From positions 83,329-147,328 of the forward strand of contig CBDCGP010000005.1 of the NCBI GenBank assembly GCA_965216655.1: a stretch of 64,000 nucleotides of DNA, read 5' to 3'. The notes beneath the pieces were generated by a model. That model did no database searches and had not been told where the DNA came from. It saw only the letters and a program-made list of their open reading frames with translations. Positions 18,096 through 28,233 of the stretch are shown here, piece after piece. Made by a program: the position numbers and the translations under genes. Position 1 is the first letter of the stretch; each line of letters opens with the position of its first letter. This stretch comes from Acidimicrobiales bacterium (lineage in GTDB: Bacteria; Actinomycetota; Acidimicrobiia; Acidimicrobiales; SZUA-35).

Positions 18096-18607
18096 CCGAC
18101 GAAACCGACGGGACCGACACCGTGGTTCGGACCGTGATCGGAAACCCGAATCCCGGCGGTCGCACCACCACCATCGGCGAGGCGGTGGCCGACGCCGTGG
18201 CCGATCTGATCGGCGGCAGTCGGGCCGACACCATCGAGCTGGCCGAGATCGGCCCCCACCTCTTCGAGTGGGGCAACGAGGACGTCAAGGCCCTCACGGA
18301 GGAGGTGGCGTCGAGCACGGTCAACGTGTTCGCCTGTCCCACTTACAAGGCGACCTACACCGGGCTGTTGAAGGCGTTCCTCGACAACTACAGCAACGAC
18401 GGATTGGCCGGCACGATCGCCGTGCCGGTGATGGTCGGCGCCACCCCCCGCCACGCGCTGGCCCCCGAGGTGCACCTGAGGCCGCTCCTCGTTGAGCTGG
18501 GAGCCTCGGTGCCCACTCGGGGGCTCTACGTTCTCGATTCGGAAATGGACGGACTGGGCGCCACGGTCGAGGCGTGGATCCAGGGTGTCGACGGTCAGCT
18601 CGGCTGA
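18092..18607 (+). CDS. NAD(P)H-dependent FMN reductase
   Basis: ATGA overlap with the monooxygenase gene. 171 aa with flavodoxin-like fold motifs (PNPGGRTT, CPTYKATYTGLLKAFLD). Confidence 0.7.
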   Translation: MTDETDGTDTVVRTVIGNPNPGGRTTTIGEAVADAVADLIGGSRADTIELAEIGPHLFEWGNEDVKALTEEVASSTVNVFACPTYKATYTGLLKAFLDNYSNDGLAGTIAVPVMVGATPRHALAPEVHLRPLLVELGASVPTRGLYVLDSEMDGLGATVEAWIQGVDGQLG

Positions 18608-18625
18608 TCGCCGATCACACGGATC

Positions 18626-18883
18626 TCACTCGTCGACCTCCTCCTCACCCTCCTCGATCTCCTCCTCGACCTGGTCCTCCGCCTCATCGAGTTCGGCGTC
18701 GGCCTCATCGAGTTCCTCTTCCAGCTGATCGACGCCTTCATCGATGGTCTCGTCGATCTCGCCGATCTCCTCGTCGAGTTCGGCTCCGTCGCCGTCTTCG
18801 TCCTCGGCGCAGGCGGCCAGTCCGCCCATGCCGACAGCCATGACGGCAGCGGTCAAGAATCCGGCAAATCGTTGTGATCGCAC
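18626..18883 (-). CDS. Small lipoprotein with an extremely acidic tail
   Basis: 85 aa. It has a signal peptide with lipobox (GGLAAC), followed by about 60 residues that are almost entirely D/E/L/I/G. Confidence 0.5.
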   Translation of the reverse strand: MRSQRFAGFLTAAVMAVGMGGLAACAEDEDGDGAELDEEIGEIDETIDEGVDQLEEELDEADAELDEAEDQVEEEIEEGEEEVDE

Positions 18884-18968
18884 GTCAACTCCTCACTGTT
18901 GATGGTTTGCCGTCTCGACGCGTACCCGGCTCCGTCCGACGTCAAACCACCGATCAGGACCGCCGTCA

Positions 18969-19637
18969 CTACCCGTGCGACAGGTTCGTCCAGGCCTCGA
19001 GGATGCGGTCGGCCATCAAACGGTGTTCGCGGGCGATGCCCCGAAGCTCCCGGTTCTCGGTTCGACCGCCGATCGCCACCGCGCCGAACCGGTTACCCCG
19101 GAAGTAGGGCCACAGGTGATCCGGCTGGAAGAACCGGTCCAGGTCGCCCGGAACGTCGATTCCGGTGGGACCGCCGTCGGGCGGTTCGGCCAGGGCGGGA
19201 AGATCCAGCGCTTCGAGCGCCTCGATGACGTCGTCGTCGTGGGTCCGGTCGGCGAAGTCGCGGCCCCGGTAGCCGAAGGCCTCGTTGCCGCCCGGGTCGA
19301 TGACGAGCAGTGCCGGCAATGCGATACCGCCCCGTTCCTCGGGATCGAACAGGCCGAGCGGTTGCAGAAGGGTCTCACCACCGGGATCACTCACATAGCG
19401 GACGTGAGGCGTCGGCCACCGGGCGAACATGCCGGCCTGGCGAACCTCGTCGTCGACGCTGACCGCGATGACCTCGGCCCCGGCCGCGTGAATCCGCTCA
19501 CTGATGGATGCCAGCCGCACGAGCTGGCCGCAGCAATACGGTCACCAGTCACCCCGGTACGTCATCAGCAGCACCGCGCCACTGCCTCGACGTAGGTTCA
19601 ACACATCGTGACGGGCGGTGCTCTCTGATTCGTGCAT
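18969..19637 (-). CDS. Redoxin/peroxiredoxin-like (AhpC-TSA fold) selenoprotein, with in-frame UGA (Sec) at 19544-19542
   Basis: My own reverse-complement of 19501-19640 reads MHESESTARHDVLNLRRGSGAVLLMTYRGDW-TGA-PYCCGQLVRLASISERI. This continues into the 18969-19520 ORF. The UGA sits exactly where the W-C-P-x-C redox cysteine is expected. Confidence 0.75.
19510..19528 (-). promoter_or_regulatory. Candidate bacterial SECIS hairpin for the redoxin UGA
   Basis: The mRNA reads UGA, then 13 nt, then GCCAGC-UCGUGCG-GCUGGC. That is a 6-bp stem with a GU-containing loop about 19 nt after the UGA. Confidence 0.4.
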
Positions 19638-19705
19638 CGCCGAACCGTAGCATCGGCCCGTGCCGGGCCGGTTATCGGGGGGCGTTCGCCACTACCAAGT
19701 CGCGG

Positions 19706-21538
19706 TCAATCCGCTTCGTGGCGGACGGCCCGCTCGGCCGGGCCGATGGTGACATCGCACAGCGTGGCGGCGCTGCCGACGATCCCGATGTGGGAGAAGG
19801 CCTGCGGAAAGTTGCCGAGCTGGCGTCGGGCGCCGGGATCGTACTCCTCGGCCAGCAGGCCAACGTCGTTTCGCAGATCGAGAAGGTGCTCGTAGAGTTG
19901 CCGGGCCTGATCGCGACGGCCGGAGAGCGCCAGGGCATCGACCATCCAGAAGCTGCAGAGCAGGAACGTGCCCTCCTCGCCTCCGACGCCGTCGTCGGAG
20001 CGATCGGTGGCGTAGCGATGGACCAGTCCGTCGGTGGTCAGTTCACGCTGGATGGCTTCGACGGTGGCCGTGACGCGGCGATCGGACGGGGGCAGGAAGC
20101 CGACCACCGGAACGAGCAGGGCCGATGCGTCGAGTACGTCGGAACCGTAGGTCTGGATGAAGACGCCATCGGCGTTCACACCGTTGGCACACACCGTTTC
20201 GTGGATCTCGGCGGCGGTTCGTCGCCATCGGTCGGCGTCACCGGGAAGGCCGCCCTGGTCGATGGTCCGGGCGGCACGATCGAAGGCCACCCACGCCATG
20301 ACCTGGGAGTAGGTGTGCCGGGCGGGCTCGCCCCGAGCCTCCCAGATGCCGTCGTCGGGTCGATTCCAGTTGCCCTCGAGCCAGTCCAGCATGGCCAGTT
20401 GCAGCTGCCAGGCGTTCTCGTCGGGTTCCATCCCGGCCTCACGGGCAAGATGCAGGGTTTCGGCCACCTCGCCGTAGACATCGATCTGTAGCTGATCCCA
20501 GGCGCCGTTGCCAGTGCGGACCGGCCGGGAGCCGGCATAGCCGCTCAGCCAATCGAGCTCGATCTCGGGAAGGCGGCGCTCACCGGTCAGTCCGTACATG
20601 ATCTGAACCCGTCCCGGGTCGCCGGCGATCGCCCGCAGGAGCCAGTCCCGCCACGCGGTTGCCTCCTCGGTGCAGCCCGAGGTGAGCATGGCTCCGAGGG
20701 TGAAGGCGGCGTCCCGCAGCCAGCAGTAGCGGTAGTCCCAGTTGCGCGTGCCGCCGATCCACTCCGGCAGTGATGTGGTCGGTGCGGCGACGAATCCTCC
20801 CGAGGGACGGTGCGACAGTCCCTTGAGCGTCACGAGCGAGGACCGGACGTCGTCGGCGTAGGCTCCCGTATAGGAGATTCTCGCCGCCCAGTCCTGCCAC
20901 CATCGGGTGGCGGCCTCCAGTAGATCGGCGGCGCTGCCGGCCGGTGGGGGCTCGTCGGCCGCTCGATACCAGGTCATCAAGAAGCCGACCCGGTCCCCTG
21001 CGCCGACCGTGAACTCGGCGACGGTCGACATGTCGTCGGGGTGCATGTCGACGTCGGACGTCAGGGTCATGGCGTCGGGGCCGCCGACGGCCAAGATCCC
21101 GCCGTCGATGCGACGGACCCAGGGCACGATGCTGCCGTAGTCGAAGCGGATCCGCAGTTCCGATCTCATGGGAACTTCACCACTGCGACCTTCGACGATT
21201 CGGACGAGCCGATGGGGCTCGGCGTCGTCGTCGGAGACGGTCAGGGCGTCGAAGACGCGGACCGTTCCCGACTCCGTGTTGTGTTCGGTGCACAGCACGA
21301 GTGAGTCCTCGAGATACCACCGGTTGGTTCGGACCCGGTCACCGTTGGCCGCCGGTCCGAGGCTCCAGTGACCGCTGTCATCACCGCCGACGAGACGGGC
21401 GAAGCAGGCCGGCGAGTCGAATCGGGGAAAACACAGCCAGTCGACCGATCCAGCCGACGACACGAGTGCACCGGAGCGGCAGTCGCTGAGGTACGCATAG
21501 TCCTCGATCGGGGGCTGTCGGAACGCAGAGCCGCTCAT
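19706..21538 (-). CDS. Glycoside hydrolase family 15 protein (glucoamylase/trehalase-like), cytoplasmic
   Basis: 610 aa. The N-terminus IEDYAYLSDCRSGALVSSAGSVDWLCFPRFDSP is typical of actinobacterial GH15. It also contains WDYRYCWLRDA. Confidence 0.85.
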   Translation of the reverse strand: MSGSAFRQPPIEDYAYLSDCRSGALVSSAGSVDWLCFPRFDSPACFARLVGGDDSGHWSLGPAANGDRVRTNRWYLEDSLVLCTEHNTESGTVRVFDALTVSDDDAEPHRLVRIVEGRSGEVPMRSELRIRFDYGSIVPWVRRIDGGILAVGGPDAMTLTSDVDMHPDDMSTVAEFTVGAGDRVGFLMTWYRAADEPPPAGSAADLLEAATRWWQDWAARISYTGAYADDVRSSLVTLKGLSHRPSGGFVAAPTTSLPEWIGGTRNWDYRYCWLRDAAFTLGAMLTSGCTEEATAWRDWLLRAIAGDPGRVQIMYGLTGERRLPEIELDWLSGYAGSRPVRTGNGAWDQLQIDVYGEVAETLHLAREAGMEPDENAWQLQLAMLDWLEGNWNRPDDGIWEARGEPARHTYSQVMAWVAFDRAARTIDQGGLPGDADRWRRTAAEIHETVCANGVNADGVFIQTYGSDVLDASALLVPVVGFLPPSDRRVTATVEAIQRELTTDGLVHRYATDRSDDGVGGEEGTFLLCSFWMVDALALSGRRDQARQLYEHLLDLRNDVGLLAEEYDPGARRQLGNFPQAFSHIGIVGSAATLCDVTIGPAERAVRHEAD

Positions 21539-21566
21539 TACTGGCTGTCCATGGTGACCCCACCCA

Positions 21567-23072
21567 TTATGGCGTCCGATACCGGGGGCGAAACGCCAGG
21601 AGTGATTCGCCGAGACCTCCGGGTCGGCTGGAGCCGAGCCAGGCGGCGGCCTGGGCGTGGCGGACGGCCTCCACCTCGTCGGCGCCTACCGCCTCGCCAC
21701 GCAGATGGCGGAGCGCGAGCATGGCGGCGCTGCACGCCGCGGTCAGCTCGGCGGCGATGATGCGCCCCCGTTCGGTGGCGGGGCTGAGCTCGGGCCAGCG
21801 ACGGTTGGCGTCGGTCAACACTTCCATCGCCGCTCGGACCGCCTCGTCGTCGAGGTCGCCGACCACGGGGAACAGCACGTCGAAGACGGCGGCGCCCAGC
21901 GGTGTGCCGTTGGCCGTCCACGCACCGAGGTTCTCGCCAAGGTGTCCAACGCGGTCGAGCAGTGCACCGAATCCCGGCCGGGCACCGAGGAGATCGTCCA
22001 CGATCGAACCCACGTCGAGCCTGTTCTCACCGGGGCCGAGAACCGCGGCACCGTGCCACGCGGCGTGGGCGGCCCGGACGATCGACGGCACCGACACCAC
22101 CAATGGTTGCCAGTGACCGTGGTCGCCCCAGTCACAGAGCATCATCGCACGGGCGCCACGTCGGGTGCCGACCGCCACCGCGTCGGCGATGTTGGCCGCG
22201 GCGTTGGCGTTGCGACCGATCAACGTGGCCCACGACGAGGTTCCGGCCGCCACCCGGAACGGCACCGCGGCATCGACCAGCAGTCGAACATGGGCCTCGA
22301 ACCCGTCAGCGGCGTCGTCGGGCAACCCGAGACGGTCCTCGAACGCGGCCGGCAGCAGACCTCGCCAGCTGCGGCCCGGAGCCTCGTAGTTCCAGCCAAC
22401 GACGGTCACCCCGTCGGGCACCCACTCCACCGCCTCGGCATCCCGGCGGAACTGGTCACCCCAGATCATCACCTCGAGGCCGTCGGCCACCAGCGGTTCG
22501 ATGATGCGCCGGAGATGTGCTCGATAGACGACGCCTCGGCCGAGACGGTCGACTTGCGCCCGGGATCGGCCAAGGCCCAACTCGAACGGTTCGTCGCCGC
22601 CGATCATGACGCGACCGGCGCCGGTAGCCTCGACCAGCCGGCGGGCCAGGCCAATGGCGAAGTCGGCGTTGTCGGCCGTCGGCGCCAGACACGACGGCGG
22701 AGCTGTGCCATCGCCCACCAGCGAGGGATATCCATCGGGACACTCGGCCCGATCCCGGTACCGATCATGGGCCAGCCATCGCTCCATGTGCCCGAAGCAG
22801 TTGAGGCTGGGGACCAGCTCGATACCGGCGTCGGCCGCCCGCCGCCGGAGCCAGGCCATGTCGTCGCCGGTGAGGGCCGATGCGTCGGCCCACACGGTCT
22901 CGTGCCCGGGGTGGGCAAAGGTGTGTTCGATGTAGAGGTGAAGTTCGGTGTAGCGCAGGCGGCCCAGGAGATCGATGAGCCAACCGAGCGTGTCGAGGGT
23001 CGGTACCCGATCCCTCGACACGTCGAGCTGGAATGCCCGCCGGGTCAGGACCGGATCACCGTTGAAGTCCAT
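21567..23072 (-). CDS. GH20-like (beta-N-acetylhexosaminidase catalytic-domain family) protein, no signal peptide
   Basis: 501 aa. It contains RAFQLDVSRD, YTELHLYIEHTF, VPSLNCFGHM and the adjacent D-E pair in MIGGDEPFE. The start lies 15 nt after the selD stop. Confidence 0.7.
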   Translation of the reverse strand: MDFNGDPVLTRRAFQLDVSRDRVPTLDTLGWLIDLLGRLRYTELHLYIEHTFAHPGHETVWADASALTGDDMAWLRRRAADAGIELVPSLNCFGHMERWLAHDRYRDRAECPDGYPSLVGDGTAPPSCLAPTADNADFAIGLARRLVEATGAGRVMIGGDEPFELGLGRSRAQVDRLGRGVVYRAHLRRIIEPLVADGLEVMIWGDQFRRDAEAVEWVPDGVTVVGWNYEAPGRSWRGLLPAAFEDRLGLPDDAADGFEAHVRLLVDAAVPFRVAAGTSSWATLIGRNANAAANIADAVAVGTRRGARAMMLCDWGDHGHWQPLVVSVPSIVRAAHAAWHGAAVLGPGENRLDVGSIVDDLLGARPGFGALLDRVGHLGENLGAWTANGTPLGAAVFDVLFPVVGDLDDEAVRAAMEVLTDANRRWPELSPATERGRIIAAELTAACSAAMLALRHLRGEAVGADEVEAVRHAQAAAWLGSSRPGGLGESLLAFRPRYRTP

Positions 23073-23087
23073 CGGGGCCGGATGCCG

Positions 23088-24131
23088 TCAGGCCAGTTTG
23101 AACAACGGTTCGCCTTCAGAGATCGAGCCGATCCTGGCCGCCGTGTGGCCACTGTCGGCCAAAGCCCCCAGCACCGACTCGGTTTCACCGGGGTCGACGC
23201 CGAACACCAGCCCGCCCGAGGTCTGGGCATCGGCGATCAACAGCTGCGATCGCTCGTCGTGGGAGCCGGGGTCGAGCAGCTCAGCACCCCACGCCAGGTT
23301 GCGCCGGCTGCCTCCCGGCACCATACCTTCGGCCGCCAGATCGGCGGCCCCGGGCAGGAACGGAACGGCGTCGAACTCGACCGTCACCCGGACCTGGGAC
23401 TCCACGGCCATCCGCCCGAGGTGGCCGAGCAGGCCGAACCCGGTGACGTCGGTGCAGCCGGTCGCCCCGGCCTCGACGGCCACCCGGGAGGCGACGTCGT
23501 TGATCCGGGTCATCGAGGCGATGGCCGCCTCGGCCACCTCCGCCGGCGCGACATCGGCCTTGATGGCGGTGGTGATGACGCCGACACCGAGTGGTTTGGT
23601 CAGGATCAGATCCTGGCCCGGCTGAAGGCCGGCGTTGGTGAGGATCCGATCGGGGTGGACCTCCCCGGTGACCGACATGCCGTACTTGGGTTCCGGGTCG
23701 TCGATGGTGTGACCGCCCACGATGGCGAACCCGGCGGCGGTGGCGATGTCCTGGCCGCCGGCGAGGAGTTCACCGAGGAGCGAGGTGGGGAGCGCGTCGG
23801 TGTTCCAGCCCACCAGGTTCAGCGCGAACAGGGGGCGGCCACCCATGGCGTAGACGTCGGAGACGCTGTTGGCCGCGGCCACCCGGCCCCACGTGCGAGC
23901 GTCGTCGACGACGGGGGTGATGAAATCGGCGGTCGAGATGAGGGCCCGGTTGTCGTCCAGTTTCCAGACGGCGGCGTCGTCACCGGTGTCGGTGCCGACC
24001 AGGAGTTCGGCCGGTTGGTCGGGGTGCAGGTCGCGCACGACGTGCGCGAGCTCGCCGGGGGCGAGCTTGCAGCCTCAACCGGCGCCGTGGCTGAACTGGG
24101 TGAGACGGTGGGTCACGTGTTCGTCGGTCAC
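23088..24131 (-). CDS. selD: Selenophosphate synthetase (SelD/SenC), Sec-containing, with in-frame UGA at 24077-24075
   Basis: The track ORF (23088-24038) is clearly SelD (GTDTGDDAAVW, AANSVSDVYAMGG). Extending upstream in frame gives VTDEHVTHRLTQFSHGAG-TGA-GCKLAPGELAHVVRDLH. This equals the E. coli LTQYSHGAGCGCKI loop with Sec in place of Cys17. GTG start at 24131. Confidence 0.9.
24033..24067 (-). promoter_or_regulatory. Candidate SECIS region for the selD UGA (two adjacent hairpins)
   Basis: The mRNA downstream of the UGA carries AGCUCGCC-ccc-GGCGAGCU (24067-24049) and GCGCAC-guc-GUGCGC (24047-24033). Confidence 0.4.
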
Positions 24132-24172: not shown

Positions 24173-25471
24173 ATGGCACTGGAGACCTGGGTCGACAGCG
24201 ACGATCTTGCCGAGTGGGTGCAGGACGCCACCGAGTATCTGATCGGAACCGTGGCCGATTTCGACCACGACGACGAGCGCTGGATGGGCCCGTATCTGCC
24301 GATAGTCAACCCGCCCATCTGGGAGCTGGCCCATGTCGGCTGGTTCGCCGAGTGGTTCGTGCTCCGCCAGTTGCACGGTCGCGATCCGCTCATGGAGAAC
24401 GTCGACGAACGCTACGACTCGGCGTTGGTGGCCCACAAGACCCGATGGCAGCTCGACTACCCCGACTCGGCCCGCACCATCGACTACGTCCGCCGGGTGG
24501 CCGACGGGTTGGTCGACGTCGTCGGCAACGACGGCGGCCTCGACTCCACCGCCTACTACGTCGCCTACGCCGTCATGCATCACGACGCCCATTGCGAGGC
24601 GCTCACCTACACCCGCCAGACCCTCGATTGGGGGCCACGCCCCGGCGGCTCCGCGTCTGAACCGGTCACCGGGGAACCGATCTCCGGCGATCGACGGGTG
24701 GGCGGCGGTCGGGTCCTCCTCGGGGCGTCCCGGAAGCAGCCCTTCGTCATGGACAACGAGAAGTGGGCCCACCCGGTGCAGGTCGACGAGTTCGATCTGG
24801 CTGTCGCCCCGGTCACCGTGGCCGATTTCGCAGCCTTCGTCGACGACGGCGGTTATGGCAACGACACCGTGTGGTCACCCGACGGCCTGACCTGGCGCCA
24901 TGATACCGGCGCCACCGAACCGGCGTACTGGCGCCGTGGCGCCGATGGCTGGGAACGCCGCATCGGTGCCGACTGGCAGCCGATCGCCGACACCGCCGAC
25001 CATCCGATGGTGCACGTCAGCTGGTGGGAGGCCGAGGCCTGGTGCACCTGGGCCGGGCGGCGGCTGCCCACCGAGGCCGAGTGGGAGGCGGCCGCCACCA
25101 CCACGCCGTCGGGCGAACGGCTTCCCTGGTTCCCGTGGGGCGGACGGGATCCGCTCCCCTCCGAGGCGGCGCTCGACGGCCGGACCGGCGGCACCGTACC
25201 GGTCGGAGCCTTCGGAGCCGGCGACGGTCCGTGGGGCCACCGGCAGCTCATCGGCAACGTCTGGGAGTGGACGGCCACCACGTTCGGCCCGTATCCCCAC
25301 TTCGAGCCCGACGCCTACCGCGACAACTCCGAGCCGTGGTTCGGCACCCGCAAGGTGCTGCGGGGCGGATCGTGGGCCACCCGCAACCGCTACGTGCGGT
25401 CGACCTACCGCAACTACTTCACCCCTGACCGGCGCGACGTCTACGCCGGATTCCGCACCTGCCCACGGTGA
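24173..25471 (+). CDS. senA: EgtB-like DinB_2 + FGE-sulfatase-domain C-S/C-Se bond-forming enzyme; SenA-type (selenoneine synthase) by context
   Basis: 432 aa. The N-terminal DinB-like part has WELAHVGWFAEWF and VMHHDAHCEAL. The C-terminal FGE part has HPMVHVSWWEAEAWCTWAGRRLPTEAEWE, GNVWEWT and RGGSW. It is divergent from selD and followed by a GT-B gene. No egtA/C/D neighbours. Confidence 0.7.
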   Translation: MALETWVDSDDLAEWVQDATEYLIGTVADFDHDDERWMGPYLPIVNPPIWELAHVGWFAEWFVLRQLHGRDPLMENVDERYDSALVAHKTRWQLDYPDSARTIDYVRRVADGLVDVVGNDGGLDSTAYYVAYAVMHHDAHCEALTYTRQTLDWGPRPGGSASEPVTGEPISGDRRVGGGRVLLGASRKQPFVMDNEKWAHPVQVDEFDLAVAPVTVADFAAFVDDGGYGNDTVWSPDGLTWRHDTGATEPAYWRRGADGWERRIGADWQPIADTADHPMVHVSWWEAEAWCTWAGRRLPTEAEWEAAATTTPSGERLPWFPWGGRDPLPSEAALDGRTGGTVPVGAFGAGDGPWGHRQLIGNVWEWTATTFGPYPHFEPDAYRDNSEPWFGTRKVLRGGSWATRNRYVRSTYRNYFTPDRRDVYAGFRTCPR

Positions 25472-25508: not shown

Positions 25509-26511
25509 GTGAGCGGTCGCTCCATCGTCATCGCCGCCCCGATCCGGCCGACGGCCCGGTCGGGCAACGACGTGACCGCCGGTCGTTGGGCTGATCATCT
25601 CGAGCGGCTCGGCCACCACGTCACGGTCGTGGCGGCCGACGAGCAGGCCGACCGGCCCGACGAGGAGACGGCTGCGCTGCTCGACGCCGCCGACATGCTG
25701 ATCGCCATCCATGCCCGGCGGTCCGCTCCGGTCATTGCCTGGTGGGCCGACCGGCATCCGGACCGACCGGTCGTCGTCGCCCTCAGCGGAACCGACCTCT
25801 ACGGTGATTTGCCGACCAGCGATGGCGCAGTGGCCTCGGTGGAGCGCGCCTCGGCACTCATCGTGCTCCAGCGGGCGGCGGCGGAGCGAGTGGCCGGCCT
25901 GAGGGCCGAGTGGGGTGACAAGACCACGGTGATCCATCAGTCGGTGGCGCCGCCGTTGCCGCCCCGCCGACCGGCGGACGACGAGCTCAGGGTCGTGGTG
26001 CTGGCCCATCTCCGGTCGGTCAAGGACCCGCTGTTGACGGCAAGGGCGGCCCGACACCTCGACCCGGCGAGCCGGGTCACCGTCCACCACGCGGGACAGG
26101 CCTTCGACCGGCGATGGGAGGAGGAGGCGATCGAGGAGCAGGCCGCCAACCCCCGCTACCACTGGCACCGCGAACTCGACCGGGACGCCGCACTCGAACT
26201 GCTCGCCACCGGTCGCGCCCTGGCCTGCACGTCGCTGACCGAGGGAGGCGCCAACGTCGTCACCGAAGCCATTGGCCCTCGGCGTGCCCGTCATCGGCAC
26301 CCGGATCGACGGCAACACCGGGTTGCTGGGTCATGACTACCCCGGGCTGATACCGGTCCGCGATGTGGAGGCCATGGCCGACCTGCTGCGTCGCCTCGAA
26401 ACCGATCCCCTGCTGTTGGCCGAGCTGCAGCGCCGCACCAATGAGCTGAAACCCATCACCGACCCGGCCGCCGAGCGGGCCGGTCTGGCCGCGGTGCTCG
26501 CCTCCCTCTGA
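25509..26511 (+). CDS. senB: GT-B glycosyltransferase, SenB-type (selenosugar synthase) by context; split by a 1-nt frameshift near 26275 as assembled
   Basis: GTG 25509 lies 38 nt after senA. Frame 1 reads up to ...TEGGANVVTEAI. Frame 2 (26272 ORF) continues ALGVPVIGTRIDGNTGLLG, restoring the canonical GT-B motif E-A-x-A-x-G-x-P-V. Removing one G (26274-75) or one C (26276-78) repairs the frame. Confidence 0.65.
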
Positions 26512-28233
26512 TCAGCGGATGGATCGGCGAATCGCGGCCGACGCGAAATCGACGGCCACGGTGACCACGAACAGCGCCACGATGGTGGCCAGAATGCCGT
26601 CGTAGTTGAACGACGCCGTCTGTTCGTCGAGGCGGCGGCCGAGGCCGGCGGCGCCGACGACGCCCACGATGACCGTCTCCCGGATCGCCACCTCCCACCG
26701 GTAGAGACCGAGGGCGACGAACCGTCCGGCCACCGCAGGCACGGTGGCCAGTGTGAACGACCCGGCGGCGGTGGCCCCGGTGGCGGCCAGGATCCGGGCC
26801 GGGCGTTGGTCATGGTTCTCCAGCACCTCGCCTTGGAGCCGACCCAGCACGCCTGTGTTGTAGACCGCCAGCGCCACGGCCCCGGGCCACAGTCCGGGAA
26901 ACAGCACGAAGACCGTGATGAAGGCCCACACCGGCGGCGGCACCGAGCGGGCCACGAGCAGGACGAACCGGACGATGGCGGCCAGTGCGCTGCGGACCGC
27001 CGCCCCCACACCGGACGCCGCCCGGCGGGGGCGTTGGGCGACGAAGGCCACAGGAGACGCCATGGCGAAAGCCAGGCCGATCGACAGGATGGCCAAGGCG
27101 ATGGTGTCGAGCGAGTCGTCGACGAGTTCCCGCAAACCGCCCGCGCCGATCTCGGGAGGCCAGCTGTCCTCAACCAGTTCGCCGGCCAGCAGCCGGGCCC
27201 GGTCGTCCCACAACGTCGAGACGTCGATGCCGAGCCGCCAGTAGGCGATCGGCAGCGAAACGGTGAGCAGCAGCGCGCTGAAGCGCAGGAACCGGTCGTT
27301 GTTCGGACGGCCGTTGGTCCGGGTGGTCCGCGTGGCCGGGGAGGCCAGGCTGGAGCCGGTGGTCTCGGCCACCGAAACGTGGGTCTCGGCGGCCAGGGCG
27401 TTGCGCCGCCGCCGGACCGCCGATGACCAACGGTCGGCGATACCGGACAGGATGATGAGCGCCCACAGCAGGGTCCACATCTCGTCATAGCGCAGCGATT
27501 GGAATGAGAGCGCCAGCTGGAATCCGAGTCCGCCGGCCCCGACGATCCCGAGCACGGCGGCGCTGCGAAGGCTGCACTCGAAGCGGTAGAACGCGTACGA
27601 GAGCAGGTCGCTCAGCGCCTGGGGGATGGTGGCGAAGGTGAGGGCGACGACCCGGCCGGCACCGGCGGCTCGCATGGAACGCTCGGCGTCACCGGACACC
27701 TCGTCGATCAGTTCGGCGAAGACCTTGGCGGTGACCGCGCCGAACGGGATGCCGATGGCCAGCACGGCGACAAGGGGGTTGAGACCGAGGATGTTGACGA
27801 GGATCAGTCCGAACACGACCTCGTGCATCGAGCGGGGGATGACCATCAGGGTCCGGCCGACCATCCAGCCGAGCCGACCACGGCCCATCGTGCCGTGGAT
27901 CGGCGTCCAGATCCGTTCGGTGAGCAGCGGGCCGAACACCATGCCGATGGCCACGGCCAGCGCGGTGCCCAGGAGCGCATAGCCCACCGTCACCGCCGAC
28001 TCCCGCAGGGTCAGCTCCAGCATTTCGGCGCTGAGGTCGGGGCGGACCATGGCGGCGAAGAAGGCGGTGACCTGCGACCAGCCCCGTTCGTTGATCAGCT
28101 CGGAGGGATCGGCGCCGGCCTTGGCCACCGACCAGGCCACCAGTCCGGCGACGACGGCCGCCCACCATCGCCGGTCCCGCCGCACCGGGCGCTGCGCGAT
28201 GACGACCGGGCGACGTTCGAGAACGGTCGTCAC
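26512..28233 (-). CDS. phnE: Phosphonate-type ABC transporter permease (fused double PhnE)
   Basis: 573 aa, made of two PhnE-like halves. It is convergent and abutting senB. GTGA-type overlap with phnC. Confidence 0.85.
   Translation of the reverse strand: MTTVLERRPVVIAQRPVRRDRRWWAAVVAGLVAWSVAKAGADPSELINERGWSQVTAFFAAMVRPDLSAEMLELTLRESAVTVGYALLGTALAVAIGMVFGPLLTERIWTPIHGTMGRGRLGWMVGRTLMVIPRSMHEVVFGLILVNILGLNPLVAVLAIGIPFGAVTAKVFAELIDEVSGDAERSMRAAGAGRVVALTFATIPQALSDLLSYAFYRFECSLRSAAVLGIVGAGGLGFQLALSFQSLRYDEMWTLLWALIILSGIADRWSSAVRRRRNALAAETHVSVAETTGSSLASPATRTTRTNGRPNNDRFLRFSALLLTVSLPIAYWRLGIDVSTLWDDRARLLAGELVEDSWPPEIGAGGLRELVDDSLDTIALAILSIGLAFAMASPVAFVAQRPRRAASGVGAAVRSALAAIVRFVLLVARSVPPPVWAFITVFVLFPGLWPGAVALAVYNTGVLGRLQGEVLENHDQRPARILAATGATAAGSFTLATVPAVAGRFVALGLYRWEVAIRETVIVGVVGAAGLGRRLDEQTASFNYDGILATIVALFVVTVAVDFASAAIRRSIR

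Follow-up and report, generated by a model that had tools for sequence, protein, structure and literature searches.

In a stretch of 64,000 nucleotides from an Acidimicrobiales bacterium (contig CBDCGP010000005.1, positions 83,329 to 147,328; hereafter the window), the region between positions 18,626 and 24,131 forms one arm, that of selD, of a selenium module. At its core, this module consists of a putative selenate ATP-binding cassette (ABC) transporter, senB, senA and a divergently oriented selD gene that encodes a selenocysteine (Sec)-containing protein, and it is conserved in related Acidimicrobiia. Immediately behind selD lies a gene for a protein resembling glycoside hydrolases of family GH20, here termed GH20L, and in four lineages with otherwise reshuffled flanks such a gene falls within the limits of this unit. 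It is plausible, as a tentative proposal, that GH20L plays a clade-restricted accessory role in which it would cleave species carrying β-linked 1-seleno-N-acetylglucosamine (β-Se-GlcNAc) or salvage 2-acetamidoglucal. The core itself corresponds to the known sen system; the attachment of a GH20 gene, if functional, would be new to a sen cluster, since our literature search retrieved no paper linking selenoneine with a hexosaminidase, or SenB and SenC with a glycoside hydrolase. An initial annotation of the region had described such an accessory function as unreported for sen clusters, and this agrees both with the literature search and with the published survey of these clusters, which names no GH20.

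The selenium module and the gene behind selD

The following features make up the core of the module and its GH20-like neighbor:

23088..24131, minus strand: selD, GTG start, in-frame TGA at 24077-24075 within HGAG-U-GCK, Sec being codon 19
21567..23072, minus strand: GH20-like gene (GH20L), 501 amino acids, GGDEPFE at residues 158-164
24173..25471, plus strand: senA (selenoneine synthase), NF041186 SenA, 449 bits against a cut-off of 420
25509..26511, plus strand: senB (selenosugar synthase), TIGR04348, +1 frameshift near 26275
26512..28233, minus strand: ABC transporter permease, PhnE-type, TIGR01097, 322 bits
28230..28988, minus strand: ABC transporter ATPase, PhnC-type, TIGR02315, 220 bits
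28996..30044, minus strand: substrate-binding lipoprotein of the putative selenate ABC transporter, TIGR04553, two +1 frameshifts

SelD reaches 380 bits with TIGR00476 (cut-off 125), and its gene, the senC-equivalent of the module, diverges from senA across 41 nucleotides (nt). The in-frame TGA (24075-24077 in the window) is found at the identical position in all sen-linked selD genes from Acidimicrobiia that we compared, i.e., those of the window and of loci L001, L004, L068, L069, L071-L073, L107, L153-L156 and L159. Because it occupies the active-site position (HGAG-U-GCK) throughout, the senC-equivalent of these clusters is itself a selenoprotein. A hairpin lies 3′ of the selD UGA (z -2.75). 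Sec-containing selD genes are truncated by gene callers. The TIGR04553 transporter adjoins selD and sen genes in every full-length module from Acidimicrobiia except L069/L070; in L153 the permease and the ATPase are the sole transporter genes called. In most relatives, the transporter moves together with senB-senA-selD as a block through otherwise unrelated genomic contexts.

Two genes of the core are interrupted in the window. SenB attains 309 bits against a cut-off of 300 only when the +1 frameshift, which reads attGGccc, is removed, and the corresponding gene call in the source annotation is truncated to 275 amino acids. The binding protein scores 333 bits with TIGR04553 (cut-off 250) after repair of its two frameshifts, which were placed at about 29706 and about 29499 by comparison with L068 and L066. 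All three +1 insertions lie in short G or C homopolymers in about 2 kb, and selD, the GH20L and GH15 genes, senA and the permease and ATPase genes are intact across 8.2 kb. The divergence of the window's SenB is normal for SenB, and as the protein is thus not unusually divergent, the frameshifts represent either a recent inactivation or an assembly error.

Assigning GH20L to its family required profile and fold evidence because the single sequence, at 17.4 bits, stays under the Pfam GH20 cut-off of 22.3; an NCBIfam search gave no match. Many of its homologues carry a precomputed PF00728 match, and a family profile built from 40 homologues matches GH20C of Streptococcus pneumoniae and GcnA of Streptococcus gordonii with an E-value of 8e-16. 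In the alignment, IGGDEP of GH20L stands opposite IGMDEA of GH20C, the W-x-D motif is aligned and WGDxG is kept, and the pair D160-E161 is invariant among the 40 homologues. When an AlphaFold2 model of GH20L (pLDDT 92.6) was submitted to Foldseek, the best matches were 2epn and 5a6x with template modeling (TM) scores of 0.65-0.70 over the whole length, and the best 50 were all GH20 structures. On the basis of profile and modeled fold, we are confident in predicting that GH20L is an N-terminally shortened, cytoplasmic GH20 enzyme of the GcnA/GH20C type. Fold, profile and D160-E161 thereby uphold the initial annotation, which had recognized a GH20-like protein with its D-E pair, although the sequence match itself is weaker than had been implied.

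The GH20L family has more than 868 members, mostly from metagenome-assembled genomes of Acidimicrobiia at about 50% identity, and extends to Myxococcota, Verrucomicrobia, Planctomycetes and Kiritimatiellae. GH20L proteins of the clade linked to selD show the substitutions M15Q, F203I, V226P and W273R (window about 22254-23030) at positions where conservation among the remaining members reaches at least 91%. W273R affects a tryptophan shared by every member outside the clade, and P0005 (from L001), which falls inside the clade, retains it. Judged by the strands on which they fall, these exchanges seem to be second-shell or to lie at the barrel's bottom, and we drew no conclusion from them.

Genetic environments were compared in 160 loci altogether. 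Sixty-seven distinct loci were anchored on GH20L, in a pattern-seeded sample with one genome per species and flanks of up to 10 kb per side where the contig allowed; 89 were anchored on SenB, 80 of them metagenome loci and nine obtained by look-up, mostly on short contigs. Selenium genes are present near GH20L in four of the 67 GH20L-anchored loci, namely L065, L152, L001/L066 and L004. The L065 protein is 76% identical to that of the window and its gene follows selD, the L152 protein is 63% identical and its gene is preceded, at a distance of 6 nt, by a 44-residue fragment that is the C-terminus of SelD, and the gene for the L001/L066 protein (59% identity) overlaps selD by 4 nt. A different arrangement is seen in L004 (49% identity), where the gene is not behind selD: here, it sits directly upstream of the selenate-transporter operon, with a gap of 6-51 nt that varies with the start assumed, and senB, senA and selD follow. 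In a neighbor-joining tree, the selD-adjacent proteins of the window, L065, L152 and L001 form one clade together with P0003, which is represented by its sequence alone, and the L004 protein branches separately at the base of the sequences from Acidimicrobiia.

The gene that follows GH20L is different in every case: GH15 in the window, tRNA-Gly(TCC) in L065, Cupin_7 in L152 and GGACT in L001. The gene for the GGACT protein, which is gamma-glutamyl cyclotransferase-like (L066, 11461-11835), overlaps the GH20L stop by 4 nt, and the Cupin_7 gene (L152, 1637-1963) starts 24 nt after GH20L; both are other lineage-specific passengers at the same operon end. The tRNA-Gly(TCC) gene, located immediately after GH20L in L065 (10293-10367), is found in L068 (3356-3428) some 4 kb past selD, an indication that the segment separating selD from the tRNA gene is variable. 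None of the other window genes, over 6-40 kb, is syntenic with the related loci. An apparently shared P450/TauD neighborhood, with these genes close to GH20L in L067 and to selD in L069, was dropped because identities of 32-33% reflect similarity at the family level.

Genes downstream of GH20L in the window

Beyond GH20L, the minus-strand gene string continues as follows:

19706..21538, minus strand: GH15 gene, 610 amino acids, trehalase-like N-terminal domain
18969..19637, minus strand: AhpC/TSA-like redoxin gene, in-frame TGA at 19544-19542, GDW-U-PYCC
18626..18883, minus strand: gene for a small acidic lipoprotein, 85 amino acids, signal peptide, lipobox LAAC, Glu/Asp-rich tail
18574..18629, minus strand: stable hairpin over the lipoprotein stop codon (18626-18628), minimum free energy -33.7 kcal/mol, z -3.3

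The order selD, GH20-like, GH15, Sec-redoxin, lipoprotein given in the initial annotation agrees with the gene coordinates, and the gaps recomputed from these are identical to the 15, 28, 68 and 85 nt originally listed. It is likewise correct that both hydrolases lack a signal peptide: their N-termini are devoid of a hydrophobic segment, and the barrel in the GH20L model begins at residue 11. Terminators separating the genes, which the same annotation had raised as evidence to look out for, were not detected by a scan of the gaps between the selD and lipoprotein genes, the totals of which were at chance level. A strong hairpin is present after the last gene (18574..18629), where it sits between convergent genes and is matched in stability by none of 200 shuffled sequences; it is likely the terminator and the 3′ end of the unit. 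Given the short gaps, the lack of a terminator in any of them and the strong hairpin beyond the lipoprotein stop, the simplest reading is that selD to the lipoprotein gene form a single transcription unit, and the GH15, Sec-redoxin and lipoprotein genes are probably co-transcribed with selD and GH20L in the genome of the window. The terminator scan also covered sigma-70 promoters, is poorly suited to Actinobacteria and revealed nothing beyond chance. Scanning the entire window against Rfam gave no match, and ARAGORN found neither a tRNA nor a tRNA-Sec in it. The third-position GC content (GC3) is 0.81-0.82 in the GH20L, GH15 and redoxin genes and 0.88-0.91 in selD, senA and the permease and ATPase genes.

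The GH15 protein matches PF00723 with 286 bits and PF19291 (TREH_N) with 63 bits, and it stays below the equivalogs for characterized trehalases (TreH1, 370 bits against a cut-off of 820; TreH2, 323 bits against 1000). It has more than 8000 homologues at E-values below 1e-20. Relatives that are 55-68% identical are present in Ilumatobacter, Gaiellaceae, Thermoleophilia and Kribbella, the Kribbella members being 55-57% identical, and one member of the family is named trehalase by UniRef. The two nearest homologues, at 67-68% identity, reside in unrelated genomic contexts. All characterized relatives obtained from NCBIfam and the PDB, i.e., trehalases and isomaltose glucohydrolase, are α-glucoside hydrolases, and judged by its sequence the protein belongs to a widespread actinobacterial family of trehalase-type α-glucoside hydrolases. 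GH15 enzymes are inverting and act on α-glucosides, not on β-GlcNAc. The selenosugar role that had been suggested for GH15 is effectively refuted by the initial annotation's own reasoning because the gene is not conserved beside selD or sen: in none of the 160 comparison loci is a GH15 gene found near selD, sen or GH20L. Homologues of the redoxin and of the lipoprotein are equally missing from all 160 loci, and the three genes are probably incidental, window-specific neighbors with no conserved tie to selenium.

The redoxin scores 49 bits with AhpC-TSA and 39 bits with Redoxin when cysteine is put in for Sec; its PDB and NCBIfam matches are weak. Its UGA replaces the first cysteine of a UxxC motif (U-P-Y-C) and is followed after 16 nt by a 7-bp hairpin, the fold being no more stable than that of shuffled sequences. 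We regard the protein as a putative selenoprotein. For the lipoprotein, no Pfam match was obtained.

Possible functions of GH20L

GH20 enzymes use substrate-assisted catalysis to cleave β-N-acetylhexosaminides, and selenols are good leaving groups. Each molecule of selenoneine or ovoselenol costs one uridine diphosphate (UDP)-GlcNAc and releases 2-acetamidoglucal. The products of SenB are β-configured 1-seleno sugars (PMC10891094). The selenoxide formed by SenA eliminates spontaneously, such that the published pathway needs no carrier-removing enzyme, and it can also be reduced to hercynyl-SeGlcNAc, a stable, dead-end selenoether (bioRxiv 10.1101/2022.04.13.486033). The sugar exits the pathway as 2-acetamidoglucal (bioRxiv 10.1101/2024.04.10.588772). 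In the sub-lineage of the window, GH20L has joined the module as the gene translated directly behind selD. In the mechanism we envisage, it would be co-expressed, throughout the selD-linked clade, with the genes for selenium uptake and activation. As a predicted ordinary exo-β-N-acetylhexosaminidase with substrate-assisted catalysis through D160/E161, it would act on the β-GlcNAc unit spent by the selenoneine pathway. Most likely, it would hydrolyze a β-Se-GlcNAc species, either SeGlcNAc left unused or hercynyl-SeGlcNAc whose reduction preceded elimination, to GlcNAc and a selenol; alternatively, it may hydrate the released 2-acetamidoglucal. In either case, its role would be accessory and dispensable rather than a core step. 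The initial annotation had suggested that the GH-like proteins handle or recycle selenoglycosides, and for GH20L this is plausible in view of its adjacency to selD, the arrangement in L004 and the β-Se-GlcNAc chemistry of the pathway, whereas for GH15 it is unsupported. Doubtful is the more specific proposal that a GH20 enzyme was recruited in a marine clade of Acidimicrobiia for the GlcNAc carrier, be it for hydrolysis of the C1-Se bond with rescue of selenoneine plus GlcNAc or for the hydration of 2-acetamidoglucal.

Several observations weigh against an accessory role of GH20L. Its link to selenium genes does not extend past a small section of the Acidimicrobiia and is rare from both directions. 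Starting from GH20L, 63 of the 67 loci are without a selD or sen gene in the DNA covered; 17 of the loci L002-L020, all from sponge-associated and marine Acidimicrobiia, share a common context of TetR, dehydrogenase, P450 and TauD genes, and L151, from a sister clade, contains DUF3151, MobA-like and rhodanese genes and none related to selenium. Starting from SenB, no GH20L homologue was detected in any of the 89 loci with diverse family members as queries. Nine lineages lacking it (L068, L069/L070, L071, L072, L073, L107, L153, L154-156 and L159/L160) are Acidimicrobiia with the identical Sec-selD/senA/senB layout, several of them with the same transporter, and L068 is the closest sen relative of the window (SelD 87%, SenA 84%). 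In trees of SenA and SelD, the window pairs with L068 and L001 with L069, and as both of these nearest partners are without GH20L, the gene appears scattered among modules and freely lost. Within the comparison set, therefore, neither GH20 nor GH15 is a recurrent sen component: GH20L accompanies selD in the window, L065, L152 and L001 and the other end of the module in L004, and the co-occurrence with selD and sen genes that the initial annotation had proposed to look for extends to GH20L in these few loci and nowhere to GH15. Among the best 120 matches each for GH20L and SenB, no contig larger than 1 Mb was common to both, and the window and L001 were the only entries shared, which is suggestive only. 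A 494-amino-acid unannotated gene product encoded beside the transporter in L159 was suspected to be a GH20L protein, and no similarity was found.

Further points on this side come from published data and from the protein itself. A survey of 827 sen clusters mentions no additional genes other than egtD and a selenate transporter (bioRxiv 10.1101/2022.04.13.486033), with neither GH20 nor GH15 appearing in it, and GH20 is outside the ten families that most commonly overlap selD globally (SelU, SenB, YedF, SelA, DUF3343, GalE, Sec-lyase, LysR, NrfD and SelB). Catalytic residues are conserved to the same degree in selenium-linked and unlinked GH20L proteins, and there is consequently no clear sign of specialization. 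In addition, the gene is co-directional with selD and not with senA-senB, and its GC3 of 0.82 is lower than that of the core module (0.88-0.91).

These observations fit plain synteny or operon hitch-hiking, which we consider nearly as likely as an accessory role. GH20L would then be a general cytoplasmic hexosaminidase for the recycling of amino sugars or cell-wall fragments, would have no selenium substrate, and would have been captured once behind selD and retained through its dependence on the selD promoter. The family is large and widespread with members almost always located away from selenium genes, the unbiased SenB-anchored sample is devoid of it, the nearest sen relatives of the window and of L001 lack it, and its codon usage is slightly off that of the core. 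With spacings between -4 and 15 nt there is no neutral site for a break, so that selD and GH20L can be expected to stay neighbors in a single clade whether or not their functions are linked, and because GH20L would depend on the selD promoter, it could persist without a common function. What hitch-hiking does not readily explain is the attachment in L004, which is independent or long-retained and involves the opposite end of the module and a different branch of GH20L proteins; the chance of adjacency to a given block is, as a rough estimate and not a computed value, about 2 in 3000 genes per genome. Moreover, β-GlcNAc chemistry beside a β-Se-GlcNAc pathway is an unlikely coincidence. Clearly less probable is selenium scavenging, i.e., that GH20L supplies SelD with selenium freed from exogenous selenosugars (glycosides of Se-GlcNAc or Se-GalNAc). 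Among the products in which animals excrete selenium are methyl Se-GalNAc and Se-GlcNAc, and GH20C and GcnA accept β-glycosides of both GlcNAc and N-acetylgalactosamine (GalNAc). Such a function would agree with GH20L being co-directional with supply genes, either selD (window, L065, L152 and L001) or the transporter (L004), and never with senA-senB, and with the description of GH20C, the nearest solved relative, as an exo-β-hexosaminidase (PMC5215778); however, the module contains no sugar transporter, its binding protein is a PhnD-type anion binder, and the distribution of GH20L is just as patchy for scavenging as it is for an accessory role. Finally, we regard it as highly improbable that GH20L and GH15 are both dedicated selenosugar enzymes of the sen cluster, as the initial annotation in its full form would have it. 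Tight spacing in a single genome, with 28 nt and no terminator between the two genes, is all that speaks for this, and it is countered by the absence of GH15 from all comparison loci, including the four other selenium modules that bear GH20L, by the unrelated contexts of its nearest homologues, by the action of its relatives on α-glucosides and by the conservation of its family in Kribbella with one member known to UniRef as a trehalase.

If the accessory role holds true, GH20L would give selenoglycosides their first assigned glycosidase and the sen/ovs pathways their first accessory enzyme for salvage. A reducing cytoplasm can divert the selenoxide intermediate to a stable selenoether, and to our knowledge nobody has described how cells handle either this compound or 2-acetamidoglucal. 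A GH20 enzyme wired into a selenium module would be a concrete and easily assayed candidate, with possible use in engineering selenoneine production. If hitch-hiking is the correct explanation, the region amounts to a common sen cluster accompanied by the selenate transporter already noted for such clusters, and it serves as a caution that tight spacing in one genome is no proof of function, as seen for GH15.

Comparison with known systems

The module resembles the sen cluster (senA-senB-senC) of the Variovorax paradoxus type in that SenA, SelD and, once its frameshift is repaired, SenB of the window pass the NCBIfam equivalog cut-offs. A co-localized putative selenate transporter has also been reported for a subset of these clusters, and a GH20-like gene, as present in the window, is absent from the paper and its tables (bioRxiv 10.1101/2022.04.13.486033). 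Further differences are that selD of the window diverges from senA-senB instead of overlapping senB, that its product is itself a selenoprotein and that senB is frameshifted. The binding protein lies above the cut-off for the TIGR04553 putative selenate binding protein, and its gene differs by its two frameshifts; the name of the family (selenate) rests on context, the substrate being putative.

The closest structural counterparts of GH20L are GcnA of S. gordonii (2epk-2epo) and GH20C of S. pneumoniae (5a69 and related structures), with which its model shares the fold over the whole length including the C-terminal helical domain, the D-E, W-x-D and WGDxG motifs and the lack of a signal peptide. 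In contrast to these enzymes, to which it is only about 15-16% identical and from which it differs by a single-sequence score below the Pfam GH20 threshold, it is without the N-terminal domain of about 90 residues, so that the alignment begins at about residue 75-98 of the respective chains, and it is encoded in a selenium module instead of a glycan-utilization locus. The GH15 protein of the window has the catalytic and trehalase-like N-terminal domains of GH15 trehalases (archaeal TreH1/TreH2 models and actinobacterial proteins) and falls below the equivalog cut-offs of the two models; its match to the isomaltose glucohydrolase of Kribbella flavida (5z3a) is distant (E-value 8e-10). The removal of the carrier in ergothioneine biosynthesis by EgtE or EgtC offers an analogy only: although GH20L is without homology to either protein, by cleaving hercynyl-SeGlcNAc it would take the carrier group off the histidine-betaine adduct and so act as the logical counterpart of the C-S lyase step.

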